From: Ruminococcus sp.
Lineage (GTDB): Bacteria > Bacillota > Clostridia > Oscillospirales > Ruminococcaceae
Assembly (NCBI GenBank): GCA_017475555.1
Contig: JAFVFL010000025.1
Span: 1 to 32,000, forward strand
Length of the DNA: 32,000 nucleotides
Reading direction: 5' to 3'
Part shown: piece by piece, positions 5,262 through 26,405 of the stretch
How positions within the stretch are numbered: position 1 is the stretch's first letter
Layout: each line of letters opens with the position of its first letter
Made by a program: the position numbers and the translations under genes
The notes under the pieces: model-generated
The model's database searches: none
Told to the model about the DNA's origin: nothing
Seen by the model: only the letters and a program-made list of their open reading frames with translations

Positions 5262-5633
5262 ATGTACTCGATAGACCTCACAAGCAGAGTCCCTATCTAT
5301 GAGCAGATATGCCAGAAGATAACGGGACTTGTCCTGAGCGGAACACTTGCCGAGAACGACCAGCTCCCAAGCGTGCGGAGCTTCGCAAAATCCTCCGGAG
5401 TAAACCCTAATACAGTCGCAAAGGCGTATCAGGAGCTTGAACGAAGCGGGATAATCTACTCCGTCCCCGGCAGGGGGAGCTTCATCTCAAAGCCGGACAG
5501 TGAATCGTTCCAGCGAGCCGCAATGGAAGAATTCGGAAACGCAGCGGCTGCGGCACTGCGCTGCGGGATAACAAAGACAGAGCTTAAAGAGTATATCGAC
5601 CATATTGATGAAAGAAAGGAGAATGAGACATGA
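5262..5633 (+). CDS. GntR-family transcriptional regulator, YtrA subfamily (short effector domain)
   Basis: The winged-HTH motif LPSVRSFAKSSGVNPNTVAKAYQELERSGIIYSVPGRGSFI is present. It is only 123 aa. RBS AAAGGAG. ATGA overlap with the next gene. Confidence 0.9.
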   Translation: MYSIDLTSRVPIYEQICQKITGLVLSGTLAENDQLPSVRSFAKSSGVNPNTVAKAYQELERSGIIYSVPGRGSFISKPDSESFQRAAMEEFGNAAAAALRCGITKTELKEYIDHIDERKENET

Positions 5634-6553
5634 TCGAGCTGAAAAATACGATCAAAAAATTCGACAGCTATACTGCCCTTGACGGGGTGAGCCTCAGTAT
5701 CGAGAGAGGCACGGCATTCGGACTTCTCGGCTCGAACGGAGCCGGAAAATCCACGATACTCCGCCTTTTATCGGGTATCTACAGACCGGAGGGCGGCGAG
5801 GTCATGATAGACGGTGAGAGCGTTTATGACAATCCGGCGATAAAGCAGAAGGTTTTCTTTATCAACGACGAGACTGTGCAGTTCGGGTCATATACCCTTG
5901 CAAAGCTCAGGGACTTCTACAAGAGCTTCTACCCGAATTTCTCCGATGAGATGTTCGAGTCGCTGAGACAGAAGGTAAAGCTGCCGCTTGACAAAAAGAT
6001 AACGACATTCTCAAAGGGTATGAAGCGTCAGGCGATAGTGATAATCGGACTTGCCTGCCGGACGGACTATCTGCTGCTGGACGAGGCTTTTGACGGACTT
6101 GACCCGACAATGCGTATAATCGTGAAGAAAATGCTCGTTGACGCAATGCTCGACAGACAGCTGACGACAGTGATATCCTCGCATAACCTGAAGGAGATAA
6201 ATGAGGTGTGCGACACTGCTGCACTTCTTCATCAGGGGAAGATAATCTTCTCCCGTGAGATAGACAGCATAAAGAGCAGCATACATAAGATACAGGCGGT
6301 ATTCCAGAAAAATGCGGACGGAACACCTGCACAGCTCACGGCTGAGGACTTCCCCGGTCTTGAGATACTGCATTTCGAGAGAAGCCAGAGTATCTACTAC
6401 ATCATCGCAAAGGGCGACGAGGAAACTATCCGGAATGAGCTTGCACCAAAGGAGCCTGCACTGGTTGAGCTTATACCGCTTACGCTTGAAGAAGTATTCA
6501 TCTATGAACTGGAGGTGCTTGGTTATGACAGCAGCGACATCACAGCAGAATAA
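5630..6553 (+). CDS. ABC transporter ATP-binding protein
   Basis: Walker A GSNGAGKST, signature-like FSKGMKRQ and Walker B LLLDEAFDGLD are present. It is translationally coupled to the GntR gene. Confidence 0.95.
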   Translation: MIELKNTIKKFDSYTALDGVSLSIERGTAFGLLGSNGAGKSTILRLLSGIYRPEGGEVMIDGESVYDNPAIKQKVFFINDETVQFGSYTLAKLRDFYKSFYPNFSDEMFESLRQKVKLPLDKKITTFSKGMKRQAIVIIGLACRTDYLLLDEAFDGLDPTMRIIVKKMLVDAMLDRQLTTVISSHNLKEINEVCDTAALLHQGKIIFSREIDSIKSSIHKIQAVFQKNADGTPAQLTAEDFPGLEILHFERSQSIYYIIAKGDEETIRNELAPKEPALVELIPLTLEEVFIYELEVLGYDSSDITAE

Positions 6554-8744
6554 AAGCCTTTTCGGCACACGCTTCCGCACTCAGACCGGCGAAAACAAGA
6601 AGCTTTTCATTATCAATATCATACTTGAGCTTCTCGGACTTCCGGTGCTTGCGGCTATCGGCTGCTACTACGCCTACGTTGAAAAATACGATATACCGTC
6701 ATGGGATCAGCCGGATCTTGACGGACTTTCGGTAGTAGCCCTGATATGTATCATGATAAGCCTCGGTCTTGGCATACTTATCGCACTGAACAGCTTCCGG
6801 TATCTTTATCAGAAAGCCCTGACGGATATGCACTACTCCCTGCCGCTGAATACAAGGCAGCGATTCTTTGCGGACTATCTCTCCGGTCTTTCGATATATC
6901 TGATACCTCCGGTGATCGCCGCTCTGGTGAGCCTTATTATACTGGTGATATCGGATATGTGTATCGCCGACCTCGGTGAGGACTTCTGGAGCGAGGTAAT
7001 GCCTCTGTTCCTGCGGCTCGCTATGATAGTGGTCATCTCCCTTGTGATGTTCTACACCACCTGCGTGCTTGCGATAATCTTCACCGGCAACACCTTTGAG
7101 GCTATACTCAGCACAGTTGCACTGAATGTAATGATACCTGCGGTGATTTTCTGCACATGGATAAATATTGCCTCTGCAACATACTTCGGCATGAGCGGTG
7201 ACGAAATAATCTACAACCTCTTCATGACCTCGACCGACCCGATAGGAAATGCTATCTTTGCGGCAATTACGCTGAATGACTATGATCAAAGCAACATATT
7301 CAGCTCAAAGCTTATCCTCCGCTGGGTCATATACACCGTTATCTTCATTGCACTCTATATCCTCGCCGCTTACCTGCTCTACAAGCACCGCAAGGCTGAG
7401 GACGTTTCAAAGCCCTACGTTTACAAGCTCTATTACTACGTTGTCGTTTTTGCAGCAGTATACTGCATACTCACAGCCTTCCTCGCTTCAGATACGAGCC
7501 TCGGTGCAGGAATACTTATCTGTGCGGTCGGCTGGTTCATCATGTCAGTCATAAGCCGCCGTGGATTCAGGCGTATCTGGGTGGATGCGATCGCATTTGC
7601 CGGAGCTGTGGCTTTAGCTATGGGTATCAATTCCCTGTGCAATGCAACAGACGGCTTCGGAGCTGCAAAGTACGTTCCCGCTGACGGACTTGTTTCCAGT
7701 GTAAATATAAGCATTTACGGAATGGACGTACACATGGACATGAACGTAAAGGACAGAGCGGTCATAGAGGAGGTAACAGGCTTGCAGCAGGAGCTTATCG
7801 ACCTCTACTTCGACCCTCAGAACCACCCACGCAAGACAGCGGAGTACCCTGACCCGAAATCCTCAAAATACAATTCTACCTATATCGAGAATGATTACTC
7901 TACACTCACGATAAAATACATCATGCGGACCGGCAACATCGTTATGCGTTCCTACAGCACAGATACGAGCCTCATGGCTGACCTTACACGGGCACTTATT
8001 TCCTCAGATGAATACGCACGTGACCAGTCTGAGTCACTTATGCTGAACGCTGTGAACACAAATGCACCTCTCTGGTATCATGATATCAAGGATGCAAGAG
8101 AACACGCAAAGGGCGGCACAATAGAGCTGTATGATAAATTCTGTCTTGACAGTCAGATAAAAACTATAAGCATGAGTGACTGTGAGCGGCTCAGAGAGGC
8201 ATATGAGAGCGACCTTAAAAACGTTACCCCGGAGGAGCTGATGAGCGGCAGGGTCTATGGAATGCTCGACTACTCATTCTGGGTACTTGACAGCTTTGAG
8301 AACACTATCGCATTCCTTGATGAGATCGGATTTGAGAAGCCGGATTATGAGGATATCCTATCCGGTCAGTACAGTGCAAGACATACAATATCTATCTATC
8401 CGGATGTATTCATATACTCTGATTACCGCAGCTTCGACTATGACAATTACAATCACAACCATTCTGTTATAGAGCCTGAAGTGATAACAAGGCTCGACCC
8501 GGTATATCACAGCACCGGCTACTATGATGTATACAATGACGAGGCTGAGAACGAGCCGACACTGAGCCTGAATACAATATCTGTCGAGGAGGACACAGAT
8601 CTTCAGGAGCTGCTTGAGGCTGCTTCACCGGTGATAATCGGTGAGATGCCCGGTGCGGTAGTTGTCATCAACGAGCAGGCATATTACATTCTCCCTGAGG
8701 ACAAGGAGCTTGCCGAAAAAGTTTATAACGAGTATTTCGGCTGA
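6525..8744 (+). CDS. ABC-2-like multi-pass membrane protein with a large uncharacterised C-terminal domain (739 aa)
   Basis: ATG 6525 is preceded by GGAGG (6512-6516). Everything upstream in the ORF lies inside the ATPase gene. There are about 10 hydrophobic spans up to about aa 470, then about 370 hydrophilic aa with no motif I recognise. Confidence 0.8.
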   Translation: MTAATSQQNKSLFGTRFRTQTGENKKLFIINIILELLGLPVLAAIGCYYAYVEKYDIPSWDQPDLDGLSVVALICIMISLGLGILIALNSFRYLYQKALTDMHYSLPLNTRQRFFADYLSGLSIYLIPPVIAALVSLIILVISDMCIADLGEDFWSEVMPLFLRLAMIVVISLVMFYTTCVLAIIFTGNTFEAILSTVALNVMIPAVIFCTWINIASATYFGMSGDEIIYNLFMTSTDPIGNAIFAAITLNDYDQSNIFSSKLILRWVIYTVIFIALYILAAYLLYKHRKAEDVSKPYVYKLYYYVVVFAAVYCILTAFLASDTSLGAGILICAVGWFIMSVISRRGFRRIWVDAIAFAGAVALAMGINSLCNATDGFGAAKYVPADGLVSSVNISIYGMDVHMDMNVKDRAVIEEVTGLQQELIDLYFDPQNHPRKTAEYPDPKSSKYNSTYIENDYSTLTIKYIMRTGNIVMRSYSTDTSLMADLTRALISSDEYARDQSESLMLNAVNTNAPLWYHDIKDAREHAKGGTIELYDKFCLDSQIKTISMSDCERLREAYESDLKNVTPEELMSGRVYGMLDYSFWVLDSFENTIAFLDEIGFEKPDYEDILSGQYSARHTISIYPDVFIYSDYRSFDYDNYNHNHSVIEPEVITRLDPVYHSTGYYDVYNDEAENEPTLSLNTISVEEDTDLQELLEAASPVIIGEMPGAVVVINEQAYYILPEDKELAEKVYNEYFG

Positions 8745-14347: not shown

Positions 14348-16585
14348 TTACTCCATATTTTTGAGTGCCTGTGCGAGCGGTATCCTCTTTATCTTCTTCA
14401 TGAGAATGAGGGAGACCGCAGCGAAGCAGAGAACTCCGATAACGAATATCATGGGATATACCCACGGTGCTACCCAGTAGCTGAGCCAGCCGTTATATTC
14501 AAGCATCATGGTGTAGTATATCTTTTCTATCGTGAAGCCCGAAAGCGGAATGCTTATCAGGAGCGAGAGCACAACAACTATCCACGTTGCCCTGCTGTAC
14601 AGACCGGACGCCTCTCTGTCAGTGTAGCCGAGTATCTTTATCATCGAGATATTTGAGGTGTTCTTCTCTATGACGAGCTTGGAGAGCAGATACATCATCA
14701 GCACGAACATAACAGTGGAGAAAGCTCCGAATATCGGGAAAAGTCTGCCCATAGAATCATCGAGCTGGTCAGCCATTATCGTCAGGTCATGCTCGGTGAT
14801 AGTCGCTGCGATCAGCTTCTCGTCAATGTCTGTGATCTTCTCGTCCGAGAAATATCCGCTGAACGAATCACTGTCGATACCGAACATATCGCAGAATGTC
14901 TCACGGCTCATGAATACGCTCAGTGTAGCCGGATAATCGTACTTGTCAGTTACCCTCAGGGTATACTCATCACCCGAATACTTCTCATGCAGGACAACAT
15001 TATCGCCGCTCTCAATGCCGTACTTCTCCATGAAGCCGTCTGAGAGGTATACCTTGTCTCCGGAAACGTCCAGACCGGTGATATAATCAGAATCCGGGTC
15101 AATGCCGTAGATAGTTATTTCCTCGTCATTGTCGTTGAGCAGTGCAGCTGCACAGTATTTCTCCGCACCCTCAGTATCAGTCTCCAGCGGCATTCTGAGA
15201 AGATACTGATACTCCGAGAACTTCGAGCTTACGACCTGCTCCTTGAAGTGATCCATAAGCGGAGAGAACATCATTCCGAACAGCATGAGTACGCTTGAAA
15301 AGAATATGCCGATAAAGAGAATGATATACGCCGCCCTGTTTTGCAGGATGATCCTTGTTCTGAATCTTGAAAGGAATCTCCAGTTCGGGAGCTTTGCGGC
15401 ACGGCGGTTCTTTTTGCGTGTCAGATCCCTTCTCAGGAATTGCAGCGGACTGAGTGAAAGCGACACGCTTACGATAACGAGGTTCACCAGGAGTATGATA
15501 GCAAGCGGTATCAGGGTCGTCCTTACGAAAGCGTCAGCATTCCAGATGACGGTATATTTTGTAAGGGAGTAGCTGTGCAGGTACATAGAAGCCATCATGT
15601 CAGGTGTTACAAGGTAACCGAGGATATTCCCGACAACAGCTGCCGCCGCAGCCGTGAGGAGCGGCAGTGCAATATAGTGCCACAGCAGCTCGCTCCGGGT
15701 ATATCCGGATGCACGCAGAGTTCCGATAACAGAAGCCTCCTGCTCAATGGTGCTCCTTGTAGTTACAGCAAAGGCGAACGCCAGAACGATGATGACGATA
15801 TACAGAAGCCACTGTATCATTACCTTGTCGCCGCCCATATCAGTACCGGTGAAGGTAATGGCGTGATTGTTCTGCTGTGCGAGAAAGTCCGTAAGCACGG
15901 CTTTTTTCGCTATGTACTTCATTATCTCGTCCGACTTGTCCTCACGGGCAGTATCGTCCATATCCCGGTCGTGATCTACCCATGCGTAGCAATACTGAAC
16001 AGCTCCGCTGAGCGAATCAAAGGCGTCGTCAGTTACGAGTGCAACGGTGAATTTATTTGCATCGAACATCATATCGGCATTGTTCTTGTAAAGACAGCTG
16101 TAGTCCGAAAATGCGGTAAGTGCCGTTACCTTGAAATTCTTTTTATCGGCTGTATAGATATCTCCTACTGAGATGTTATTATTCTCCGCATACAGCCTGT
16201 CTATGGCGATCTCGTCGTCCTTTTCCGGAAATTCGCCCTTGAGGACATCTATCCTGTCCACCTCGTCTCTCTGAGTATAGAAGCGGACTGTGTGACCCTC
16301 CGGAGTCTCGCCGTTGACGAAATACAGCGGATAAATGGATATATCAAATTCGTTTTCGATATCGCTCAGCAGGTCGTCCTCCGGGAGCTGTGCAAGGATA
16401 AAGTGTCCGTCCTCGACAGTGAATTTCTCAAAGCTGTCATCGTAAGCCTTTTTCAGACTGTTGTCGGCAACGAGAAACCCTGACACGAAGGCGATAGTGA
16501 GCGAAAGAAAGAGAAACAGAGCGATATACTTTCCTATATCGCTTTTCAGCTCACGGGGAAGGCGTTTAAGAAGCGGATTTTTCAT
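14348..16585 (-). CDS. ABC transporter permease with two FtsX domains (745 aa)
   Basis: An N-terminal TM is followed by a large extracytoplasmic domain and 3 TM, and this pattern repeats. FtsX-type motifs are present (GTLRASGYTRSEL, IKILGYTDREASG). It lies 12 nt downstream of its ATPase gene. Confidence 0.9.
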   Translation of the reverse strand: MKNPLLKRLPRELKSDIGKYIALFLFLSLTIAFVSGFLVADNSLKKAYDDSFEKFTVEDGHFILAQLPEDDLLSDIENEFDISIYPLYFVNGETPEGHTVRFYTQRDEVDRIDVLKGEFPEKDDEIAIDRLYAENNNISVGDIYTADKKNFKVTALTAFSDYSCLYKNNADMMFDANKFTVALVTDDAFDSLSGAVQYCYAWVDHDRDMDDTAREDKSDEIMKYIAKKAVLTDFLAQQNNHAITFTGTDMGGDKVMIQWLLYIVIIVLAFAFAVTTRSTIEQEASVIGTLRASGYTRSELLWHYIALPLLTAAAAAVVGNILGYLVTPDMMASMYLHSYSLTKYTVIWNADAFVRTTLIPLAIILLVNLVIVSVSLSLSPLQFLRRDLTRKKNRRAAKLPNWRFLSRFRTRIILQNRAAYIILFIGIFFSSVLMLFGMMFSPLMDHFKEQVVSSKFSEYQYLLRMPLETDTEGAEKYCAAALLNDNDEEITIYGIDPDSDYITGLDVSGDKVYLSDGFMEKYGIESGDNVVLHEKYSGDEYTLRVTDKYDYPATLSVFMSRETFCDMFGIDSDSFSGYFSDEKITDIDEKLIAATITEHDLTIMADQLDDSMGRLFPIFGAFSTVMFVLMMYLLSKLVIEKNTSNISMIKILGYTDREASGLYSRATWIVVVLSLLISIPLSGFTIEKIYYTMMLEYNGWLSYWVAPWVYPMIFVIGVLCFAAVSLILMKKIKRIPLAQALKNME

Positions 16586-16597
16586 TATTTCCCCTCC

Positions 16598-17296
16598 TTA
16601 CCAATCCAGCTCAGCGGCAGGAGTCTTGACAGTATTGAGGTCGTTGTGGCGTATCCTTCCGTCACGGAACTTGATGACCTGGTCAGCCATGAGCTTTATC
16701 GCATCGTTATGGGTAACGATGATGACAGTGTTGCCGAACTTGCTGTTCACGTCCTCTATGAGCTTGAGTATTTCCTTTGAGGTGTTATAATCAAGAGCAC
16801 CGGTCGGCTCATCGCACAGAAGGATATCCGGATTTTTGATGATAGCCCGTCCTATCGCAGTACGCTGCTGCTGACCGCCTGAAAGCTGTGAGGGTATTTT
16901 GTCCTTATGCTCCCACAGACCGAGGGTCTTGATTATCTCGTCAAGCTCAAGGGGCTTGTCGCTCAGATATGCACCGACCTCGATATTCTCTTTTACAGTG
17001 AGATTCGGGATAAGGTTGTAGGACTGAAAGACGTATCCGATGTGCTTGCGGCGGTACTGTGAGAGCTGTTTTTCGTTCATAGCGGCAGTTTTTTCGCCGT
17101 CTATGCTCACTGTACCGCTGTCGGGGGTGTCGATACCGCCGATGATGTTGAGCAGAGTAGACTTGCCGGAGCCTGACGGCCCGAGGAGAACGCAGATGTG
17201 ACCCTTTTCCACTCCGCAGGTTATGCCCTTTAATACCTCCGCACGGTTCTCACCCTCGCCGAAGGATTTTTTTATATCGTCCAGTTCAAGATACAT
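16598..17296 (-). CDS. ABC transporter ATP-binding protein (MacB/LolD-type)
   Basis: Walker A GPSGSGKST, signature LSGGQQQR and Walker B LLCDEPTGALD are present. RBS GGAGG. Confidence 0.95.
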   Translation of the reverse strand: MYLELDDIKKSFGEGENRAEVLKGITCGVEKGHICVLLGPSGSGKSTLLNIIGGIDTPDSGTVSIDGEKTAAMNEKQLSQYRRKHIGYVFQSYNLIPNLTVKENIEVGAYLSDKPLELDEIIKTLGLWEHKDKIPSQLSGGQQQRTAIGRAIIKNPDILLCDEPTGALDYNTSKEILKLIEDVNSKFGNTVIIVTHNDAIKLMADQVIKFRDGRIRHNDLNTVKTPAAELDW

Positions 17297-17348
17297 GATA
17301 TGACCTCCTGATAAGATTTAGATGCTAACTGCTCATGACCGCAGCAAA

Positions 17349-17396
17349 CATATGAACATCTATTCATATGATAATCCAATTTATCCGCAATGTCAA
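17349..17396 (-). promoter_or_regulatory. sigma-A type promoter with an overlapping palindromic operator candidate
   Basis: On the minus strand: TTGACA (17391-17396), a 17-nt spacer, then TATCAT (17368-17373). The palindrome CATATGAA-N6-TTCATATG (17349-17370) overlaps the -10 and the predicted TSS. Confidence 0.45.
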
Positions 17397-17534
17397 GAAA
17401 AACCCGGCAATTGCAAGAGATTTGTGAAATGCAGTCAAATATGATAGGATAGGGAAAAAAGTTATGTTAATACTTACTAACAATACAGAGAACATAAGTT
17501 AGCTAAAGGTAACTGACTGATGCGGAGATGCACG

Positions 17535-17569
17535 AAAAAAGCCCCGTTGTAACAGCGTACATACGGGGC
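17535..17569 (-). terminator. rho-independent terminator after the MacB-like permease gene
   Basis: On the minus strand: GCCCCGT stem, loop, ACGGGGC, followed by TTTTTT (the plus strand reads AAAAAAGCCCCGT...ACGGGGC). Confidence 0.7.
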
Positions 17570-17591
17570 ATAAAACTATATCATGCAGAGA

Positions 17592-18905
17592 TCAGTCGTA
17601 TCTCAGTGCATCTATCGGGTCCATTTTCGCAGCCTTTCCGGCAGGATACAGACCGAAGAACACTCCTGTGAGAGTGGAGAAAATTATTGATATAACTATC
17701 GCTCCGACTGAGGGTGAGATACTGATATTTCCCAGCAGATCACTGTAATCCGGATTGCTGCTGACGATGTTGTTTGCGATCACTCCTACAAGCTCGCTGT
17801 TGAGAAGCCCTATCAATATGCCGATAACTCCGCCGATGAGACAGATGATTATAGCCTCAATGAGGAATTGCAGCTTGATAGTGCTCCGCTTTGCTCCCAG
17901 AGCCTTCCGTATTCCTATCTCACGGGTACGCTCCGTTACAGACACGAGCATGATGTTCATAACGCCTACACCGCCGACAATGAGCGATATTGCGGCAATT
18001 ACCGAGAATATGATAGTAAGTATGTTGATTATCATATCATATATCTCGACCTCGTCCTGGATATTGTATATATATACGTTCCACATACGGTTTTCCTTGT
18101 ACTGTTCATCGAAAAAATCGCATATCTGTGTGTAAGCAACAGAGTTTTCAACGGACAGGTCGTAGAATATCTGTAGATTGTAGAAGCCCTCCTCAGGCAT
18201 AGCCTTCATATCGTTTATCACGTTGTAAGGCAGATATATCGGCGTTACCTTGTCTATTTCCTTTGTGCCGGCAGGAAAGCTGTTCAGCTTCAGCTCTGAA
18301 TATTTGTACACTCCTACGATAGTGAACTCGAACGGATTGCCGTTTTCAAAGCTCACCTCAATGTTCTGACCGATAGGCTCCTCGCCGTTCCTGAAATACT
18401 GTCTTACGAAAATATCCGAAACTATCGCAGAATGCTTATTCTGCTCATTGTCAGCCATTGTGATGTTTCTTCCAGCCTTCAGCTTCAATCCGAAGCTGTC
18501 AAGATATCCGTTCAGCACGCCCTGTATCTGGACGTTTATGTACTGCTTCTCGGAATTTACCACTGTAGCTGAGCTTGAGCCTGTGCTTGCAGCCACCTTG
18601 AATTCTCCGGGATACTGCTCCTCAAGCTCTCTGAGCATATTGAGCGTTATCATATCCTCACTCGTCAGGTAGTAGTCATCATCGTCAAGCCCCTCCACTT
18701 CCTTTTCGTTAATGTACGCAAGGAAGCTGTTTCCGCCCATCGAGCTGAGAGCACGCAGGATAGTGGTTCGGAGCGTACTGCCGAGTGTAGTTATTGTGAT
18801 AACCGCACTGATACCGATTATTATACCCAGCATGGTCAGGAGAGCTCTCATTTTGTTGGCAGCGATAGAGCTGAACGCCATTCTTATGTTCTCAAAAAAG
18901 CTCAT
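17592..18905 (-). CDS. MacB-like ABC transporter permease (MacB periplasmic-core domain plus FtsX domain)
   Basis: An N-terminal TM is followed by an approximately 250-aa extracytoplasmic domain, then a 3-TM FtsX module with EIGIRKALGAKRSTI. ATGA overlap with the ATPase gene. Confidence 0.9.
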   Translation of the reverse strand: MSFFENIRMAFSSIAANKMRALLTMLGIIIGISAVITITTLGSTLRTTILRALSSMGGNSFLAYINEKEVEGLDDDDYYLTSEDMITLNMLRELEEQYPGEFKVAASTGSSSATVVNSEKQYINVQIQGVLNGYLDSFGLKLKAGRNITMADNEQNKHSAIVSDIFVRQYFRNGEEPIGQNIEVSFENGNPFEFTIVGVYKYSELKLNSFPAGTKEIDKVTPIYLPYNVINDMKAMPEEGFYNLQIFYDLSVENSVAYTQICDFFDEQYKENRMWNVYIYNIQDEVEIYDMIINILTIIFSVIAAISLIVGGVGVMNIMLVSVTERTREIGIRKALGAKRSTIKLQFLIEAIIICLIGGVIGILIGLLNSELVGVIANNIVSSNPDYSDLLGNISISPSVGAIVISIIFSTLTGVFFGLYPAGKAAKMDPIDALRYD

Positions 18906-19663
18906 TCCCCGCTCACCTCCGTATTTTCAGCACCGGCATTTTCAGCGGTATTTTCCAGCGTATCGGAGATGACGCTGCCGTCGCTTATCGTGATTATACG
19001 CTCAGTCTCAGAGGCAAGCTCCGGGCTGTGAGTTATCAGGACAATTGTCTTGCCCTCCTGCTTATGGAGCTTGTGGAAGATATTCATAACGAGGTGTCCG
19101 GTCTTTGTGTCAAGTGCTCCGGTAGGCTCATCAGCGAGGATTATCGCCGGGTCATTCGCCATAGCCCTTGCAATTGCAACTCTCTGCTTCTGACCGCCCG
19201 AAAGCTCATTCGGCTGGTGGGTGTACCTGTCCTTCATCCCGACAAGCTCAAGCAGCTCCATAGCCCGCCTGCTTCGTTCCTTTCTCGGAACTCCGGCATA
19301 CATCATGGGCAGCTCGACATTTTTCAGTGCATTCGTTCTCGATATAAGGTTGAAGGTCTGGAACACGAAGCCGATCTTCTGGTTTCTGATATTGCTCAGC
19401 TGCTTGTCATTCAGCCGGCTGATATCCGTTCCGTCGAGGAAATACTCCCCCTCAGTCGGTCTGTCGAGAGCACCTATCATGTTCATCAGCGTACTCTTGC
19501 CTGAGCCGGACGCACCGACGATCGAGACAAATTCCCCCTCATGGATATCGAGGGAAATACCGTTGAGTATCTGCAATTCATTCGGCTGACCTATGTAATA
19601 CCGCTTGATAATGTTTATCATCTGAATGATAGTTTTTGCCATATCATTCACCATCACTGTCAT
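18902..19663 (-). CDS. MacB/LolD-type ABC transporter ATP-binding protein
   Basis: Walker A GASGSGKST, LSGGQKQR and ILADEPTGALD are present. The start is uncertain: ATG 19663 overlaps the HlyD gene by 20 nt, and ATG 19642 lies 2 nt after its stop. Confidence 0.9.
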   Translation of the reverse strand: MTVMVNDMAKTIIQMINIIKRYYIGQPNELQILNGISLDIHEGEFVSIVGASGSGKSTLMNMIGALDRPTEGEYFLDGTDISRLNDKQLSNIRNQKIGFVFQTFNLISRTNALKNVELPMMYAGVPRKERSRRAMELLELVGMKDRYTHQPNELSGGQKQRVAIARAMANDPAIILADEPTGALDTKTGHLVMNIFHKLHKQEGKTIVLITHSPELASETERIITISDGSVISDTLENTAENAGAENTEVSGE

Positions 19664-21098
19664 CGTAGTAGCTGCCGGAGATCCTGAGCCTGTCGCCGTC
19701 TGCGATATAATCCGGCTCAGTAACTATAAGGTCGCCCTCCTTGATACCGGAGGAAATGATCTCGGTCAGATAGCTTGTGTCAAGTCCCTTTTCAACATCA
19801 ACGAGCTTTGCGGTATAGCTGCCGCCGGACTCCTCCGCAACAACGACACTGAAGCTGCCGTCCTTGTTCGTCACGATAGCATCATACGGAACTGCGAGGA
19901 CATCGCTCTTTTCCTCAAGGATTATCTTGACCTTGGCAGTCATGCCTATAAGTAGGGTGTTGTCCGGGTCGTCGAGGGTTATCTCAGCGGAATATCCGCC
20001 GGTAGATTCGCCGGTGTACATATTCACCGACTGATTGCTCATTATATTCACGACTCTGTCAACAGTTCCTGAAAACTCAGTATCACCGGTCGCATTTGCC
20101 GTGATGACAGCCTTCTGACCCTCCTTGACACTGAGGATATCCGCCTCCTTTATCTGCACGTTTATCCTGAGCCTTGAGGTATCTTCGATAGTCATGATAG
20201 CGTCGGTAGTCGGGATACTTCCCTCAGCGGCGTTGAGTGCGGTGATTATCCCGTCCTTTGGTGCGGTCACTGTACACTTGTTTATCCTCTCCTGGAGCTT
20301 GTCGAGCTGGTTCTGTATCGAGTCGTCGGTGGTATATTTCTCGGCATTTATAGCGTCCTGTGCAGCCTGTATCGCAGCGTCGGCGTTCTTTTCGGCAGCT
20401 GAATATGCGTCCCTTGCGTCCTGTACAGCGGAATCGTAGCTGCTGAGGTTTTCGCCGAGAGCGGTATACTCTGCCTCTGCCGCCTGATACTGCTGATAGA
20501 GAGCCTGAGCCTGTTCAAGACCGAGCTCATCGCCCTCAGAGACAGCCTTGTCGTATGCGGAGCTGTACTGGCTGTAGAGGTTATTTGCCTTTTCGACAGT
20601 GCTGTTGTATTTATCGTAGGCTCTGTCACGGGCAGAAACGGCATTGTCAATGATCCTCTGAGCCTGTGCGAGGGCTGACTGCTTGTCGCTCTTTGCGTTG
20701 TCGAGATTACGCTGGTTGATGGTATGCTGATCCTGGTGCTGCTCGCCGGATTTTTCAGAGCTGCTGGTGAGGCTGTCATACTCAGCCTGAAGGTCGCTGC
20801 TGTCGAACACACACAGAACATCGCCCTTTTTGACGCTGCTTCCGAGCTCAACGTTGAGAGATACGATCTTGGTATTCAGGTCGCTTGTTATCTTCACAAG
20901 GTCTGAGCCCTCAACGGTACCCGAAACGCTGATATAGTTTTCAAGGTCGGTCTTTTCGACGGTGTAGGTATCATAGGTCAGACCGCCCTCGGTACTGCTG
21001 CCGCCGCAGGAATACACCGGCATGAGTGCAGCGGCAGATATGCACAATAGTGCTGCCACTTTCTTAAAGAGATTATTTTTCATATAAATTATACTCAT
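19644..21098 (-). CDS. HlyD/MacA-type membrane-fusion (periplasmic adaptor) lipoprotein
   Basis: The signal peptide carries a lipobox (ALMPVYS-C-GG). A lipoyl/barrel-sandwich segment (VKKGDVLCVFD) is followed by a long Ala/Gln/Asp-rich coiled-coil hairpin and a beta-barrel C-terminus. The start may be ATG 21083. Confidence 0.85.
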   Translation of the reverse strand: MSIIYMKNNLFKKVAALLCISAAALMPVYSCGGSSTEGGLTYDTYTVEKTDLENYISVSGTVEGSDLVKITSDLNTKIVSLNVELGSSVKKGDVLCVFDSSDLQAEYDSLTSSSEKSGEQHQDQHTINQRNLDNAKSDKQSALAQAQRIIDNAVSARDRAYDKYNSTVEKANNLYSQYSSAYDKAVSEGDELGLEQAQALYQQYQAAEAEYTALGENLSSYDSAVQDARDAYSAAEKNADAAIQAAQDAINAEKYTTDDSIQNQLDKLQERINKCTVTAPKDGIITALNAAEGSIPTTDAIMTIEDTSRLRINVQIKEADILSVKEGQKAVITANATGDTEFSGTVDRVVNIMSNQSVNMYTGESTGGYSAEITLDDPDNTLLIGMTAKVKIILEEKSDVLAVPYDAIVTNKDGSFSVVVAEESGGSYTAKLVDVEKGLDTSYLTEIISSGIKEGDLIVTEPDYIADGDRLRISGSYYDDSDGE

Positions 21099-21115
21099 TT
21101 ACTTTCAATACGCAC

Positions 21116-21144
21116 ATTATATCACGAAATCAACTATTTGTCAA
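21116..21144 (-). promoter_or_regulatory. perfect-consensus sigma-A promoter for the HlyD-ABC operon
   Basis: On the minus strand: TTGACA (21139-21144), exactly 17 nt, then TATAAT (21116-21121). It is very close to the annotated start codon, which favours the downstream ATG 21083. Confidence 0.5.
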
Positions 21145-21364: not shown

Positions 21365-21393
21365 TTGACATCGGACAAAAGCAGTGATAAAAT
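21365..21393 (+). promoter_or_regulatory. sigma-A type promoter (extended -10) for the small-ORF / sigma / serpin operon
   Basis: TTGACA (21365-21370), a 17-nt spacer ending in TGa, then TAAAAT (21388-21393). Confidence 0.55.
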
Positions 21394-21426
21394 AAGCTTA
21401 TCCTATTATTTCCGGAGGAGAAAAAA

Positions 21427-21561
21427 ATGACAGAAAATGAAATAGATAAGGCGGTAAAGGAATTTTTTGATGAGCTGCCGGATGACCTGCCCTTTGAGGA
21501 AACGGTAAAAAGGGTGACGGGGCTTGCTGATGCTGAGAAAAGATATCGTACTCAGAAATAA
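21427..21561 (+). CDS. candidate 44-aa acidic small protein (below the ORF-track cutoff)
   Basis: GGAGGAG (21414-21420) lies 6 nt upstream of ATG 21427. The ORF reads MTENEIDKAVKEFFDELPDDLPFEETVKRVTGLADAEKRYRTQK with TAA at 21559-21561. It sits between the promoter and the sigma gene. Confidence 0.35.
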   Translation: MTENEIDKAVKEFFDELPDDLPFEETVKRVTGLADAEKRYRTQK

Positions 21562-21646
21562 AATGAAAAGCTCGCCCTGAATGTGTAATATTTCCCGATA
21601 AATGCTGTCTTGATAGGTGAAACGGACGAAAGCGAGGTGGAGACCT

Positions 21647-22207
21647 ATGGACGACAACGACATAATCCGGCTTTACTGGGACAGAGACGAGCGTGCAGTC
21701 GCCGAAACATCTGCAAAATACGGACGCTTCTGCATGAATATCGCCATGAATATCCTCGCCGACCACGAGGATTCCGAGGAATGCGTAAATGATACATATT
21801 TGAAAGCGTGGCAGGCTATACCGCCGCAGAAGCCAGCCTTTTTTCAGGCATTTCTCGGAAGGATAACCCGGAATCTGTCACTTAACAGGTACAACAGCCG
21901 GCATACTGCAAAACGGGGCGGTTCTGAGATACCTCTTATACTCGATGAGCTTTGCGAGATCGTCTCCGATAAGGAGGGTACTGAGGACAGGGTGCTCCGC
22001 AAGGAGCTTGTGAATACTATAGACCGGTTCATTTCAGCTCTCCCGGACGAAAAACGCTATATCTTTATCCGCCGCTACTGGTATTCCGACAGTATCTCAG
22101 CTATCGCAGACAGGCTCAAACGCACCGAAAATTCAGTATCAGTCGAGCTTTTCCGGATACGGAAAAAGCTGAGGGCATATCTTACAGAAAGGGGCTATGA
22201 CATATGA
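21647..22207 (+). CDS. sigma-70 family (ECF-type) RNA polymerase sigma factor
   Basis: A region-2-like segment (DSEECVNDTYLKAWQAI) and a region-4 HTH (RYIFIRRYWYSDSISAIADRLKRTENSVSVELFRIRKKLRAYL) are present. ATG 21647 has a GAGGTGGAG RBS. The GTG at 21617 from the ORF track has no RBS. Confidence 0.85.
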   Translation: MDDNDIIRLYWDRDERAVAETSAKYGRFCMNIAMNILADHEDSEECVNDTYLKAWQAIPPQKPAFFQAFLGRITRNLSLNRYNSRHTAKRGGSEIPLILDELCEIVSDKEGTEDRVLRKELVNTIDRFISALPDEKRYIFIRRYWYSDSISAIADRLKRTENSVSVELFRIRKKLRAYLTERGYDI

Positions 22208-23709
22208 AAAAAGAGGATCTTTATGAGCTTATGGGCGACATTGACGAAAACGCCGTTGCAGACGCTGAGAAGCCACCTGCGAGGTCACGGCACCGGTGGA
22301 TAAATCATGCAGCTGCCGCTGCGGTTTTTATCGCAGCCTTCGCAGGAGGAGTCTTTTTTATGGCACATTTTGACCGGAGCAATGATAAAAAATATGATGA
22401 TGTGGCCACTATACCAGAAACAGCGGATAATGCCGGCTTTGGCTACGGCATCCAAAACGCTGTGCTTGCGGCGGCACAATACCCTGAAATGCCGGAATAT
22501 CCCGATGAAACAAAATATCCCTATGGCAAAGGGCATGAAGAAGCATACAGCGAATGGGCTTCCTTCAAGCGAGAGCTGCGGGAGCAGCCGCCGGGCTATA
22601 AGGACGGATACGATACTTTTTTCACAAGCAGCGTGAGGACATTTCTGAACGGCACCGGCAGCGGGAATATGATATACTCCCCGGTAAGCCTTTACATGGC
22701 TCTTGGAATGTCGGCGGAGATAACTGACGGAAATACCCGGCAGCAGATACTTGATGTTCTTGCCCAGGACGATATCGACACCCTGCGGCAGCATTTTAAG
22801 TCGATATGGCTTGCGAACTATAACAATGACGGAATGGGCAGTCTTGTGCTTGCGGATTCGCTCTGGCTCAGCAATCATTATTCGTACAATAAGAACACGG
22901 CAGACCTGCTTGCTGATAATTATTATTCCTCTGTATATTCAGGTGACCCCGGCACGGAGGAATATAACTCACTCATGCACGACTGGCTCAACAAGCAGAC
23001 TGACGGGCTTTTGTCGGATCATGTGTCCGGGATCGAAATGCCGCCGGATATGTTCGTCATGCTTGCTTCAACGGTGAATTACAGCGGAAAGTGGGGGCAG
23101 CAGTTCAATTATAATAATACAGCTCCCGGAACCTTCCATTCTCCTGATGCGGACGTACAGTGTGATTTCATGCACGATACCAAATATGACGGACTTGAGT
23201 GCGGAGAGAATTTCATCTCCATAGACCTCGGTCTTGCAGGCAACGGGAAAATGAGACTGATACTGCCTGATGAGGGTATCACGCCGGAGGAGCTTCTTGG
23301 CGATGACAGCGTTATGAAATTCATGCTTGGGAATACGAATTACGTGACCACAAAAGACGTTGAGGTAAAGCTTACTGTGCCGAAATTTGACGTATCGTCC
23401 AGCATTGACATGATAGACGGGTTGCAGGAGCTTGGCATAACTGACCTGTTCAGCTCTGAAAGCTCCGACTTTTCTCCGCTCTCGGACAGTGCCGCTGGTG
23501 TTTCCGTTTCAAAGGTCGAGCAGGACACAAGAGTGACCATAGACGAGGAGGGCTGCCGTGCTTCTGCATTTACAGTAATGGTGGCGATGGGTGGATGGCT
23601 GCCGGACGAAACGGCAGAGCTTACAATAGACAGACCATTCATATTCGAGATAATAAGCGAGACAGGACTGCCTGTATTCGTCGGGATAGTAAACGACCCT
23701 ACACGATAA
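22204..23709 (+). CDS. single-pass membrane protein: short cytoplasmic anti-sigma-like N-terminus, TM helix, linker and an extracytoplasmic serpin domain
   Basis: ATGA overlap with the sigma gene. TM at aa 32-56 (WINHAAAAAVFIAAFAGGVFFMAHF) is preceded by RSRHR. Serpin motifs: NMIYSPVSLYMALGMSAEITDGNTRQQILDVL, the hinge DEEGCRASAF, and LTIDRPFIFEI (aa 473-483), which fits the serpin signature pattern [LIVMFY]-x-[LIVMFYAC]-[DNQ]-[RKHQS]-[PST]-F-[LIVMFY]-[LIVMFYC]-x-[LIVMFAH]. Confidence 0.8.
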   Translation: MKKEDLYELMGDIDENAVADAEKPPARSRHRWINHAAAAAVFIAAFAGGVFFMAHFDRSNDKKYDDVATIPETADNAGFGYGIQNAVLAAAQYPEMPEYPDETKYPYGKGHEEAYSEWASFKRELREQPPGYKDGYDTFFTSSVRTFLNGTGSGNMIYSPVSLYMALGMSAEITDGNTRQQILDVLAQDDIDTLRQHFKSIWLANYNNDGMGSLVLADSLWLSNHYSYNKNTADLLADNYYSSVYSGDPGTEEYNSLMHDWLNKQTDGLLSDHVSGIEMPPDMFVMLASTVNYSGKWGQQFNYNNTAPGTFHSPDADVQCDFMHDTKYDGLECGENFISIDLGLAGNGKMRLILPDEGITPEELLGDDSVMKFMLGNTNYVTTKDVEVKLTVPKFDVSSSIDMIDGLQELGITDLFSSESSDFSPLSDSAAGVSVSKVEQDTRVTIDEEGCRASAFTVMVAMGGWLPDETAELTIDRPFIFEIISETGLPVFVGIVNDPTR

Positions 23710-23726
23710 AACGCTATGACAAGCTG

Positions 23727-23759
23727 AAAGGGACACTCTGCAATGCAGGGTGTCCCTTT
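23727..23759. terminator. bidirectional terminator between the convergent serpin gene and dockerin-hydrolase gene
   Basis: AAAGGGACACTCTGCA / TGCAGGGTGTCCCTTT form a 15-16 bp stem with one mismatch. It is flanked by A-runs on one side and T-runs on the other. Confidence 0.7.
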
Positions 23760-23774
23760 GTTACTGTGTTATTG

Positions 23775-26405
23775 CTATTTGCCAAGCAGGTGATCGCTCA
23801 GACCTGTGAGGTCTTCCTCAGTGTATTCACCCGTATCCGCAGATATCCTCTGCCGCATAAGTGCGAGGTCGAACGTATCCCACACTCCGTCCTCATTCAC
23901 GTCCCAGTCAGGTATCTTAGCCGCCCTGTAGCCATACAGCGAAAGCTCATTCAGGTCGCCGCCGTCCTTGACTATCCTCAGGCAGTCAGTCGCCGCAGAA
24001 TCCTCCGTCAGTGTTACTGCCCGGTACATATATCCGCCGAGGTCACTGCTCCAGAGAAGCTTGTCAGTATGTGCATCATATACCGATATACCGCCCGTTC
24101 CGTAGGTATCATACACCGCAAAGCCGTTGAGGACAACAGGCTCGTCAAAGTACACATACCCGGTAATACCGGACTTGTTCACATTTGTCTCAGGCGTGCT
24201 CAGTCCTGATGTATCGCCGTATATCGGGTCAGGCATTGTGTCCGGCTCATCGAACATACGGTAGAACTGATTCAGCGTTCCGTCAGAGGGTGCTGCACCA
24301 CCGGGGGTACACGTTTCGCCCGACCTGTCATCAGTAAGTGCTATGAGGTCGGGGCGGAGCATATTGTTCCTGCCGTTGATGATAGTCTCCGGGGTATTGG
24401 TAAACGTGATGTAGACCGGCGTTTCTGTAACGTCTGTCGTAACGCTGCCGTCCTTTACCTCAAGCTCTGTCGTAACGCCCTCTGCACAGTCCTCCGAGGG
24501 TACTGTAAGGTAGGCATACTTATAGCTGCCGGTCGGGATCACATTGTAGTTTTTTATAACGTTATCACTGTTCGTTGCAGACCATACGCACCTTATCTCC
24601 TTACCGCCGTCTGCCTGCTCAGTGAATATCATCTCCGTGACCGCCGAGTCATTCCCGTTATGAACAGCAGCCAGATCCGCATTTTTCAGCACACTTGTCA
24701 TGCACGAAAGATAATACCACGCCTTCTTTTTCTTCCATTCACCCTTGCCTGTGACAAGTCCGGAATTGTAGTATACTCCCTCGCCCTCGTCACGCAGCTG
24801 GAACTTGGTTATCCTGTCCGCACCGGCTATCATAGAGGTGAGATATGTCCTTGCAACTCTCTGTGCGTATTTCAGCTGATAATTCTCATTGTCGTGATCG
24901 TCAGTACCCTCGATCTCACAGTCGCTCATGGGTATCTCAAATTCTGAGATCCACAGCTCCGTACCGGGGGCATTCTTCGCTATCCATTCTCTCAGCTCAG
25001 TAATTTTATTGAAAAGTCCGCTGTCCTCTACGCAGTAATCGTCAGGGCCAATGTGAACGTTGATGATATCCACGGCAAATACTCCGTCGCTCCGGTTGTA
25101 ATCGAACCACAGCTTCATCTCATCGAGATACTGTATCATGGTCGAATAGCCGACAAGTCCGCCCATCGCAAGCCTGAAATCCGGGTCAGCGGTGTGTACT
25201 CCGGCATTCGGGATAGTCCCCTCATGCCCGTCATAGTCGGCACTGCACATTGCTGCAAGCTCATACGGCGTGAAGTAATTAGCCTTGCCAGCCCAGCTCT
25301 TGTTCGGCTCATTGGAATTTTCAAGAGCGTCGATAAGCCCCATTCCGACCTTTTTCTCCTGAGCGTCAGTGATATTCAGCGTTGCCTCGTCAATATCGCT
25401 GTTGCTGCCGTAGCGTGCAGCCACCTGATACATCGCCTGTGCGTGTATCGCATAGCTTGCCGGGTCAAGGGTATCCGCACCGGACGGGACAGGTATCTCG
25501 ACAGACGTTGTACCGCCGGAGACCGCCGTGCTTCCGCCCTGAAAGCATGGTATAGCACTTATGCCCTGCTTCTTGAGGGAGGTATAATAAGCGTCCATAT
25601 CGCCCCATGTACCCTGAGTGAACCGCACCTTTCCGTCAGAATCCACAAGCCAGCTGAAATTGTGGTACTCTCTGACATTTCCAGCCGCCATGATCGCTGT
25701 TATCGGGTCGTCGATAAATGCGTTGAAGCCTGCCCTCTGACCGGCTGTGAGCGGTCTTTGGCTGCTCTTGGGCTTTGCAGCAGTTTTCGCCTTCTGAGTA
25801 TCTGTAAGCTCCGAAGCCTTGTAGCCGTATATGGCAAGCTCGCTCACGCCGCTGTCGCAGTAATCCGAGCTGAAATGCAGATACCTCGTCGGCTCAGGCG
25901 AATCGAACGTAACGCTCCTCCACCAGTTGTAGCTGTCCATATTCACATTTGCTATTTCGTTCCACGAGAACGGCTCTCCGTCGGATACAGTCCATGTCGG
26001 AGTGCCGTTGGTATCGAGAAAGGCTATGCCGGTAATGACGTAATTTGCCCCGAAATCCACGTAAAACGAAGCCGCACCGTACTCAGTCTGCTGATTCGGA
26101 GTCCAGTTAGCCTTTGATGTCTCACTCAGCACAGAGCTGTCTACCTTTGGATTTTCCGCCGAAGCGGGCACCTTGTCCTGCTCATCGAAAAGATAGCTCA
26201 CATCACGCAGGTATGTACCCGCACTGAGGTGTACGAAATTCTCATCGTACACAGTAAACTGTGACATATCCAGAAGCTCCGGAGTTTTGTCCGCAGCGTC
26301 AGCCGTGCTTATGCTCATTGACGGGAATGCAGCTCCGCCTGCAAGCACAGAAGCCGCAGTCAGTACAGCAGCTGTCCGGTTTATAAGCTTATAATAACGT
26401 CTCAT
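23775..26405 (-). CDS. secreted clan GH-A-like glycoside hydrolase with N- and C-terminal discoidin (F5/8 type C, CBM32-like) modules and a divergent C-terminal dockerin
   Basis: Signal peptide (AAVLTAASVLAGGAAFP...ADA). The central barrel has an NEP acid/base motif (ALENSNEPNKSW, Glu366) and a nucleophile-like ELWISEFE (Glu488). The dockerin loop is DVNEDGVWDTFDLALMRQRI. The GH family is not assignable by eye. Confidence 0.7.
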   Translation of the reverse strand: MRRYYKLINRTAAVLTAASVLAGGAAFPSMSISTADAADKTPELLDMSQFTVYDENFVHLSAGTYLRDVSYLFDEQDKVPASAENPKVDSSVLSETSKANWTPNQQTEYGAASFYVDFGANYVITGIAFLDTNGTPTWTVSDGEPFSWNEIANVNMDSYNWWRSVTFDSPEPTRYLHFSSDYCDSGVSELAIYGYKASELTDTQKAKTAAKPKSSQRPLTAGQRAGFNAFIDDPITAIMAAGNVREYHNFSWLVDSDGKVRFTQGTWGDMDAYYTSLKKQGISAIPCFQGGSTAVSGGTTSVEIPVPSGADTLDPASYAIHAQAMYQVAARYGSNSDIDEATLNITDAQEKKVGMGLIDALENSNEPNKSWAGKANYFTPYELAAMCSADYDGHEGTIPNAGVHTADPDFRLAMGGLVGYSTMIQYLDEMKLWFDYNRSDGVFAVDIINVHIGPDDYCVEDSGLFNKITELREWIAKNAPGTELWISEFEIPMSDCEIEGTDDHDNENYQLKYAQRVARTYLTSMIAGADRITKFQLRDEGEGVYYNSGLVTGKGEWKKKKAWYYLSCMTSVLKNADLAAVHNGNDSAVTEMIFTEQADGGKEIRCVWSATNSDNVIKNYNVIPTGSYKYAYLTVPSEDCAEGVTTELEVKDGSVTTDVTETPVYITFTNTPETIINGRNNMLRPDLIALTDDRSGETCTPGGAAPSDGTLNQFYRMFDEPDTMPDPIYGDTSGLSTPETNVNKSGITGYVYFDEPVVLNGFAVYDTYGTGGISVYDAHTDKLLWSSDLGGYMYRAVTLTEDSAATDCLRIVKDGGDLNELSLYGYRAAKIPDWDVNEDGVWDTFDLALMRQRISADTGEYTEEDLTGLSDHLLGK

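Follow-up and report, generated by a model that had tools for sequence, protein, structure and literature searches.

Could a serpin act as the receptor through which a bacterial sigma factor is switched on? The question is raised by a stretch of 32,000 nucleotides (nt) from a Ruminococcus sp. contig, referred to here as the window and used for all coordinates, in which the gene for an extracytoplasmic function (ECF)-type sigma factor overlaps the gene for a 501-amino-acid (aa) single-pass membrane protein whose outer domain is a serpin. Serpins are suicide substrates that undergo an irreversible conformational change on proteolytic attack, and an earlier note on this DNA had proposed that the gene pair encodes an anti-sigma switch baited for proteases. 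Our conclusions, all of which rest on computation, are that the two proteins are likely to be a sigma/anti-sigma pair, and that the full model, in which the serpin ectodomain of a single-pass anti-sigma factor serves as a protease sensor, has a probability of roughly 0.5.

A sigma factor gene is coupled to a gene for a membrane-anchored serpin

The sigma gene (21647-22207, forward strand) starts with ATG and encodes a 186-aa protein of the ECF type (group 4). Only Sigma70_r2 (5.8e-11) and Sigma70_r4_2 (5.4e-8) were matched in Pfam, the two domains expected from the earlier assignment of this protein, and the NCBIfam model TIGR02937 (sigma70-ECF) was matched with 68.7 bits (cutoff 42.9); the match to PF07638 (Sigma70_ECF) falls below its cutoff. 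A homology search returned 3702 relatives, the closest of which are also 186 aa long. We place translation initiation at the ATG of 21647 because the ECF-type promoter described below puts the transcription start near 21617-21620; a longer protein initiated from the GTG at 21617 is unlikely, as the homologues have 186 aa and the conserved promoter ends there. The stop codon of the sigma gene overlaps the start codon of the membrane-serpin gene (22204-23709, forward strand) in the sequence ATGA (22204-22207), an arrangement of translational coupling that recurs as a -4 overlap in most related loci. This overlap and the two open reading frames (ORFs) lie exactly where they had been placed before. 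The exact proteins are known to databases as 'hypothetical protein' and 'sigma-70 family RNA polymerase sigma factor'.

The first 31 residues of the 501-aa protein (MKKEDLYELMGDIDENAVADAEKPPARSRHR; 22204-22296, forward strand, as are the segments that follow) form a conserved cytoplasmic module, which is the candidate sigma-binding, or anti-sigma, segment. An AlphaFold2 (AF2) model of the protein, built on 32 family members, places two short helices here (aa 3-9 and 15-22) with low confidence, at a predicted local distance difference test (pLDDT) score of ~50-57. A single Ala/Gly-rich transmembrane (TM) helix follows (aa 32-55, 22297-22368), for which an N-in/C-out orientation is predicted. 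The hydrophobicity peak at aa 36-54 (Kyte-Doolittle), the AF2 helix at aa 37-54 and the basic residues R27, R29 and R31 on the N side of the helix agree with the topology first read from this DNA, namely a 31-aa cytoplasmic N-terminus and one TM helix. The next ~80 aa had been described as a linker rich in Pro, Tyr and Glu. That description stands for a variable, disordered juxtamembrane linker (aa 56-84, 22369-22455) but not for the ~60 aa beyond it (aa 85-143, 22456-22632), which form a conserved, confidently folded extension of the serpin (VLAAAQYPEMPEYPDE...W118...QPPGYKDGYDTFF). The pLDDT is below 50 over aa 24-83 and reaches 79-91 in 10-residue blocks across aa 91-140. In the family alignment, the linker varies in length from ~5 to >100 aa and is merely ~5-10 aa long in many members, and Y93, P94, P100, W118 and F139 of the extension are invariant within the pattern LAAAxYPEMPxYPDE...W...QPxGYxDGFDxFF. 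When a query containing the extension was searched against PDB sequences, only the serpin-domain part aligned, in all cases weakly, and the extension was unmatched.

More than 1000 relatives of the 501-aa protein, counted as protein clusters at 90% identity, were found at E <= 1e-10. Scanning one genome per species yielded 381 matching loci, 80 of which we examined; they come from Clostridia of the rumen and of the rabbit, chicken, mouse and human gut, mostly Ruminococcus and other Oscillospiraceae with some Lachnospiraceae, and include a few cultured isolates, among them Ruminococcus sp. YE71 (L013) and Hominifimenecus sp. rT4P-3 (L061, with a complete genome). Whether the adjacency of sigma and serpin genes is conserved among relatives was a check proposed at the outset, and a sigma homologue adjoins the serpin gene in 68 of the 80 loci, spanning many genera. 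Nearly all of these sigma genes lie directly upstream with a 4-nt overlap. The gene order is reversed in two loci (L045:4509-6892 and L049:126-2402), with the sigma gene directly downstream of the serpin gene; a 181-nt gap separates the two genes in L024, and L035 and L072 are cut by contig ends. Clustering of all ORFs from the 80 loci gave the serpin in 80, the sigma factor in 68 and the next real family, an ABC ATPase, in at most 8. Because no third gene family is conserved, the conserved unit is strictly a two-gene cassette.

A third gene had been assigned to this operon, a 44-aa acidic ORF (21427-21561, forward strand) that has a strong ribosome-binding site (GGAGGAG) and lies between a sigma-70-like and the ECF-type promoter. 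All three ORFs are present, but the 44-aa ORF is specific to the window: it has no homologue in the 80 related loci, where none of the other window neighbours is conserved either, and it matches no significant Pfam family. We therefore rejected it as an operon member; it could encode a small protein restricted to this lineage, or be no gene at all. Past the serpin gene, a 15-bp hairpin between convergent genes (23727-23759; -32.2 kcal/mol, z = -7.1, with 0 of 200 shuffles as good) is likely the terminator of the cassette.

The cytoplasmic segment changes with the sigma factor

Nearly all of the best 120 relatives start with the conserved motif, after which comes a basic patch (the commonest forms of the motif are MKKEQFYELLGDVDEKAVKAAE and MKNKDILLDVIGDTDEKLIPEL), and the hydrophobic helix starts at aa 31-48 in every one of them except a single N-terminally truncated entry. 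We analyzed co-variation between aa 1-24 of the partner protein and the sigma factor in 64 sigma/partner pairs. Sigma factors of 180-183 aa are accompanied by the promoter CGTTACC-N16-CGTCT (30/30) and by the motif ILLDVIGD (22/30), and those of 186 aa pair with the motif KKExFYExLGDIDE and the promoter TGTAAGATT-N12-CTGTC. N-terminal identity rises with sigma identity (Spearman 0.72 overall and 0.60 for serpin versus non-serpin pairs), and the N-terminus of the window protein is 57% similar to those of non-serpin partners in its own sigma clade, 59% to those of serpin partners in that clade and 37% to those of serpin partners in the other clade. A third promoter class, approximately TGTCA-N17-GCGACT, is located ~40-75 nt upstream of the sigma gene in five loci (L058, L062, L069, L074 and L077) and goes with a clade of 184-185-aa sigma factors whose partners start ...MFDGITDIRDDLI.

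Non-serpin partners with lengths of 189, 192, 197 and 334 aa (L084:4558-5127, L086:3558-4136, L088:3558-4151 and L081:4558-5562) are ATGA-coupled to sigma homologues 58-66% identical to that of the window. Their first ~55 residues are the same N-terminal module, in which a TM helix comes after a motif such as MKKEQFYALLGDIDEATVKSAENPPVRKKHIWLKY. Residues 1-60 of the window protein, searched against 1.84 billion representatives gave nine matches at E <= 1e-3 and added three non-serpin architectures, of 195, 269 and 396 aa. A profile of the N-terminal alignment searched against a 5.8-billion-protein set returned 11 short fragments, which are uninformative on ectodomains. Apart from one weak match to DUF4367, the non-serpin ectodomains have no significant match in Pfam or NCBIfam. 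At least five other ectodomain types, in proteins of 189-396 aa, are seen on the same N-terminus/TM scaffold, in the four loci named above and in P0242, P0243, P0247 and P0248. The co-variation is the pattern that would be expected if the N-terminus contacts the sigma factor within a modular anti-sigma scaffold.

Lipoprotein forms of the serpin provide a natural control

In ten of the 80 loci, 5 kb of surrounding sequence contains no homologue of the sigma factor (L059, L063, L064, L066, L067, L070, L073, L075, L076 and L079); the hosts include Flintibacter and Dysosmobacter, as well as several uncultured Oscillospiraceae and Clostridia. In all ten, a lipobox signal peptide (e.g., MKRIVALCLAAACLISMVGCAGD) stands where the sigma-coupled proteins have the N-terminal motif and TM helix, which indicates that the cytoplasmic motif and the sigma gene are gained or lost together. 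The lipoprotein forms retain the pre-serpin extension, as YPEM(A/P)xYP, and the loop of L064, the sole lipoprotein locus from which the loop was extracted, resembles those of sigma-coupled serpins. Their ORFs start at locus positions ~4779-4872, or at 1401 and 3825, and Dysosmobacter segnis has two copies (L070 and L073).

These forms bear on a simple alternative, in which the window protein is an ordinary secreted serpin, its hydrophobic segment a cleavable signal peptide and its position beside a sigma gene meaningless. Clostridia and Ruminococcus flavefaciens do have secreted and dockerin-borne serpins (PMC2930009 and PMC5301203). We nevertheless consider this reading very improbable. The n-region of the sigma-coupled proteins is 31-45 aa long and conserved, and their hydrophobic stretch of ~23 aa is followed by no conserved AxA site. 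True signal peptides of the subfamily, of which MKRIVALCLAAACLISMVGC is an example, differ entirely and occur solely where the sigma gene is absent, in keeping with the initial judgment that a 31-aa n-region is too long for a cleavable signal peptide. Chance adjacency is moreover difficult to square with its frequency and its spread over genera.

A second alternative accepts the anchor and dispenses with the anti-sigma factor: the serpin gene would simply share a transcript with the sigma gene and be under the control of the sigma factor, and the N-terminal motif would have another role, such as membrane insertion, localization or turnover. In favor of this, none of the known anti-sigma domains (class I ASD/zf-HC2, RskA, DUF4179, RsgI_N and FecR) was found above threshold in Pfam or NCBIfam. 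Below threshold, NF052375 reached 15-19 bits (cutoff 100) and, in non-serpin partners, DUF4179 reached 12-14 bits (cutoff 30); both matches fall over the basic/TM stretch, and DUF4179 is not reported for the window protein. At ~31 aa, the cytoplasmic segment also falls well below the length of a class I anti-sigma domain and, as noted above, is modeled with low confidence. Short two-helix anti-sigma domains do exist, such as the class II type of CnrY, which the N-terminus of the window protein resembles in size alone. Evidence against this alternative comes from the behavior of the motif, whose class switches with the sigma clade while the serpin is unchanged, which is kept on unrelated ectodomains beside close sigma homologues, and which is lost exactly where the sigma gene is lost. 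The near-universal 4-nt overlap further argues for stoichiometric co-production. We regard a serpin without anti-sigma function as improbable. An anti-sigma role is well supported by the comparative evidence of conserved adjacency, co-variation, loss of the motif with the sigma gene and reuse of the motif on other ectodomains.

The cassette carries a conserved ECF-type promoter

The promoter originally named for this locus, a TTGACA-17-TG-TAAAAT site (21365-21393, forward strand), is a genuine sigma-70-like match (11 of 12 positions, with a TG extension), and a TGnTATAAT box is found 40-60 nt upstream of the ECF-type promoter in many related loci. This site probably gives basal expression. The promoter conserved in the family is, however, a different one, an ECF-type site directly upstream of the sigma gene (21584-21616, forward strand), with the -35 element TGTAAT (21584-21589), a 16-nt spacer and the -10 element TGTCTT within CTGTCTTGATA (21605-21615). 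Related loci have a clade-specific bipartite motif of this type at a fixed distance upstream of the sigma start codon. The same motif precedes the non-serpin cassettes of the same sigma clade, and in the reversed-order loci L045 and L049 the motif of type B sits before the serpin gene.

We scored the window with a position weight matrix (PWM) derived from 11 related sites and the window site itself, which took the place of a loose type-B regular expression that gave hundreds of chance matches. The ECF-type promoter of the cassette scored 34.5 bits, the next best site in the 32 kb 10.5 bits, and the maximum in shuffled sequence was 17.0 bits. Extra matches to the type-A promoter in the related loci had been considered as regulon members and were dropped, as their number equals the chance expectation. 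Bacillus ECF promoters are similar (TGTAAC...CGAC and TGAAAC...CGTA). The location and conservation of the site suggest positive autoregulation by this sigma factor, and a pairing of basal and inducible promoters is plausible.

The ectodomain is a complete serpin with an inhibitory-type hinge

The serpin domain (aa 144-499, 22633-23700, forward strand) matches PF00079 (Serpin) with E 4.5e-57 and 194.4 bits (cutoff 27), over profile positions 11-370 of 370, close to the span of about aa 135-500 that had been anticipated. Conserpin and tengpin are its closest sequence matches in PDB (~1e-30). In the AF2 model, the serpin core has a pLDDT of ~90 and the reactive-centre loop (aa 453-465) one of <50, which fits an exposed loop. 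The top Foldseek match of the model is native tengpin (2pee_A; E 2e-28, 429 aligned columns), and hundreds more serpins follow.

Alignment with conserpin, the family profile and the AF2 model delimit the hinge and reactive-centre loop to aa 447-470 (DEEGCRASAFTVMVAMGGWLPDET; 23542-23613, forward strand). The hinge DEEGCRASAF, which the earlier note had pointed out together with the serpin signature, can be read directly from 23542, with residues G450-C-R-A-S-A-F-T457, and the signature LTIDRPFIFEI (strand s1C to s4B) at 23620-23652 on the forward strand; in the latter, R477, P478, F479, F481, E482 and I483 show little or no variation. The family alignment also conserves the hinge pattern IDEEGC[KR]A. 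A profile of 127 family loops of modal length has G at P15, C at P14, A at P12, A/S at P11, S/A at P10, Leu/Phe at P9 and T at P8 (126/127), followed by Y/F at P4, G at P2 (115/127), mainly A at P1, G/A at P1' and P at P3'. The consensus at the scissile bond is thus Y-x-G-A|A/G-x-P. The corresponding residues of the window protein are G|W, since its P1-P1' pair is predicted to be G464-W465 when its loop is aligned by length with that of alpha-1-antitrypsin, which conserpin carries. Judged by the small residues at P15 and P12-P9 that mark inhibitory serpins, the window hinge is of the inhibitory type, with Cys in place of Thr/Ser at P14 and Leu/Phe in the family at P9. The ectodomain is complete and apparently competent for inhibition, given the complete fold and a hinge strongly conserved in the sigma-coupled forms.

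Several cysteines are a peculiarity of the family. Cys451 at P14 of the hinge (23554-23556) is nearly invariant, in contrast to the Thr or Ser of most serpins, and two more near-invariant cysteines lie in the serpin body, one at alignment column 214 (Leu in the window protein) and one at C320. A cysteine in the TM helix (AAAAC), conserved in serpin and non-serpin partners, is Val in the window protein.

A model for transmembrane protease sensing

In the model that we favor, aa 1-31 would hold the sigma factor at the membrane, as the gene coupling and co-variation suggest, and the predicted topology and AF2 model would have the serpin displayed on the cell surface past the TM helix by way of the pre-serpin extension. 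A target serine protease would cleave the loop and set off the irreversible loop-insertion transition, which is established serpin chemistry and putative for this protein. How such a transition might reach the linker is indicated by tengpin, whose N-terminal extension covers a hydrophobic patch and is replaced there by strand s1A after the S-to-R transition (PMC1905895). Because the site of the tengpin extension is taken by s1A, an extension tethered to the membrane a few residues past the TM helix would be released by loop insertion. By analogy with tengpin and with RsiV, RsiW and RseA, the transition may alter or undock the juxtamembrane extension, after which the ectodomain would be removed and regulated intramembrane proteolysis (RIP) would free the sigma factor. 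The free sigma factor would transcribe the ECF-type promoter upstream of its own gene, a use suggested by the conservation of that promoter, and so raise the levels of both sigma factor and surface serpin. The cell would thereby gain a surface protease inhibitor that is induced by proteases and replenishes itself, and the regulon may have further members elsewhere in the genome. Stated in its most specific form, that serpin loop insertion acts as a one-shot transmembrane protease sensor releasing an ECF sigma factor via an undescribed ~30-aa anti-sigma module, which also carries other uncharacterized sensor domains in gut and rumen Clostridia, the proposal is tentative, and we would place its chances a little short of even.

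The main rival of this model makes the serpin an output. The N-terminus would still sequester the sigma factor, release would be set off by something else, for instance general envelope stress or unspecific cleavage within the disordered linker, and the serpin would be a tethered inhibitor, perhaps shed on cleavage, whose level is raised by autoregulation. The lipoprotein paralogues fit this well, as they have the same extension and constitute a surface inhibitor without a sigma factor; the cassette itself is the only conserved promoter target found; several unrelated small ectodomains are borne by the same sigma/N-terminus scaffold; and the linker is disordered and highly variable in length. 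On the other side, it is established for RsiV, RsgI and FecR that the outside domain is the input, and the irreversible change that a serpin undergoes on proteolytic attack makes it an obvious trigger. The linkers of many members are moreover so short (~5-10 aa) that they could hardly be clipped non-specifically unless the docked extension came away from the serpin. On balance we judge it somewhat unlikely that the serpin is an output alone.

A number of observations weigh against the serpin as a protease-sensing anti-sigma factor, beginning with the missing matches to known anti-sigma domains and the short N-terminus already discussed. The reactive-centre loop is fairly conserved, not hypervariable, and may therefore be aimed at a single protease, which could belong to the cell itself. 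That this serpin subfamily works without a sigma factor is shown by the lipoprotein paralogues, so that the serpin could be output and not input. None of the 80 loci contains a conserved neighboring gene for a site-1 or site-2 protease, a target protease or a transporter, and the PWM found no second ECF-type site in the 32-kb window. Lastly, in the cultured Ruminococcus sp. YRD2003 (L008:3847-4140), the sigma gene is truncated to residues 87-186 beside an intact serpin gene; the 5' half of the sigma gene is replaced by unrelated sequence and the ATGA overlap is retained, making this a natural sigma-less variant.

Relation to known systems

The kind of system is known, an ECF sigma factor with a single-pass anti-sigma factor; what is new is the sensor fold and the undescribed short N-terminal module. 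As in RsiV/SigV of Bacillus subtilis and Clostridioides difficile, and in RsiW and RseA, an ECF sigma factor is followed by a co-transcribed, N-in single-pass membrane protein. RsiV shares with the window protein an autoregulated promoter (presumed so for the window) and an outside domain presumed to be the receptor of a host or competitor protein, lysozyme in the case of RsiV. It differs in belonging to the Pfam family DUF4179, whereas the ~31-aa N-terminus of the window protein falls under no known anti-sigma model, and in being triggered by ligand binding, whereas a serpin sensor would be expected to respond by covalent, irreversible cleavage and rearrangement. A further difference from RsiV and other RIP systems is that the 80 loci show no cassette-linked gene for a site-1 or site-2 protease.

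The RsgI/SigI systems of fibre-degrading Clostridia offer the parallel of many paralogous cassettes in which one N-terminal/TM scaffold carries interchangeable extracellular sensing domains. The window sigma factor is, however, a canonical two-domain ECF protein (TIGR02937) and not SigI, there is no match to RsgI_N (PF12791), and in place of the carbohydrate-binding modules of RsgI we find a serpin and several uncharacterized ectodomains.

Among serpins, tengpin of Thermoanaerobacter tengcongensis (PDB 2pee/2pef) is the best structural and one of the closest sequence matches, and it too is a serpin from the class Clostridia with an N-terminal extension. Its extension controls the native-to-relaxed transition (PMC1905895) and has no detectable sequence similarity to that of the window protein, and tengpin is not described as sigma-coupled. 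The serpin operon of Bifidobacterium breve and B. longum is similar in that a gut serpin is made when proteases are present; its transcription is reported to be protease-induced and autoregulated via a two-component system (PMC8201313). There, a separate histidine kinase and response regulator do the sensing and the serpin is not the sensor, whereas here a single polypeptide, coupled to an ECF sigma factor, would combine sensor, membrane transducer and effector. Siropins, miropin and the dockerin-borne cellulosomal serpins are likewise serpins of gut or rumen anaerobes with inhibitory-type hinges, and are thought to guard cells or surface enzymes from proteases of the host or of other microbes. 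They are soluble, lipoprotein or cohesin-docked and have no signaling module, in contrast to the cytoplasmic, sigma-associated N-terminus of the window protein.

A full-text literature search found no description of a serpin fused or coupled to an anti-sigma factor, in agreement with the earlier note, whose author knew of none. The main text of an ECF reclassification paper (PMC7826278) does not mention serpins, and a search through the main text of a serpin superfamily phylogeny turned up nothing on sigma factors, membrane anchoring or domain architectures. If the sensor model is true, this would be the first case known to us of a serpin as a signal receptor and not only an inhibitor, and a means for a bacterium to sense extracellular proteolysis directly, with a suicide substrate as bait. 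With 381 loci, the system is widespread and is relevant to the protease/antiprotease balance of the gut, which is already studied with siropins and the serpins of bifidobacteria. A further outcome is an uncharacterized, modular family of ECF sigma factors and short putative anti-sigma factors, whose ectodomains are exchanged much as in RsgI. A cassette as compact as this one, with one promoter, two genes and one terminator, would be an attractive protease-responsive synthetic switch, its specificity reprogrammable via the reactive-centre loop.

Genes around the cassette

The window neighbors are ordinary chromosomal genes, including those for a MacB/HlyD-type exporter, an AMP-binding enzyme, ApbE, BacA and a GH3 enzyme. 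A divergent operon on the reverse strand (14348-21144) encodes HlyD, two ABC ATPases and two permeases of the FtsX/MacB type, and has a promoter that matches the sigma-70 consensus perfectly (12/12) with a TG extension (21144-21116). Convergent with the cassette, a reverse-strand gene (23775-26405) encodes an 876-aa secreted-looking protein with no Pfam match at E <= 1e-3 and a C-terminus (DVNEDGVWDTFDLALMRQRI...) that is dockerin-like by eye. Neither the operon nor the 876-aa gene is conserved beside the cassette, and we rejected both as parts of it; as an exception, a similar ABC/FtsX pair lies downstream of the cassette in L013. Farther upstream on the forward strand (5262-8744), the gene for a 123-aa GntR-family regulator overlaps by 4 nt that for a 307-aa ABC ATPase and is followed by an 810-aa ORF without Pfam match, a layout that looks like a YtrA-type regulator and transporter unit.

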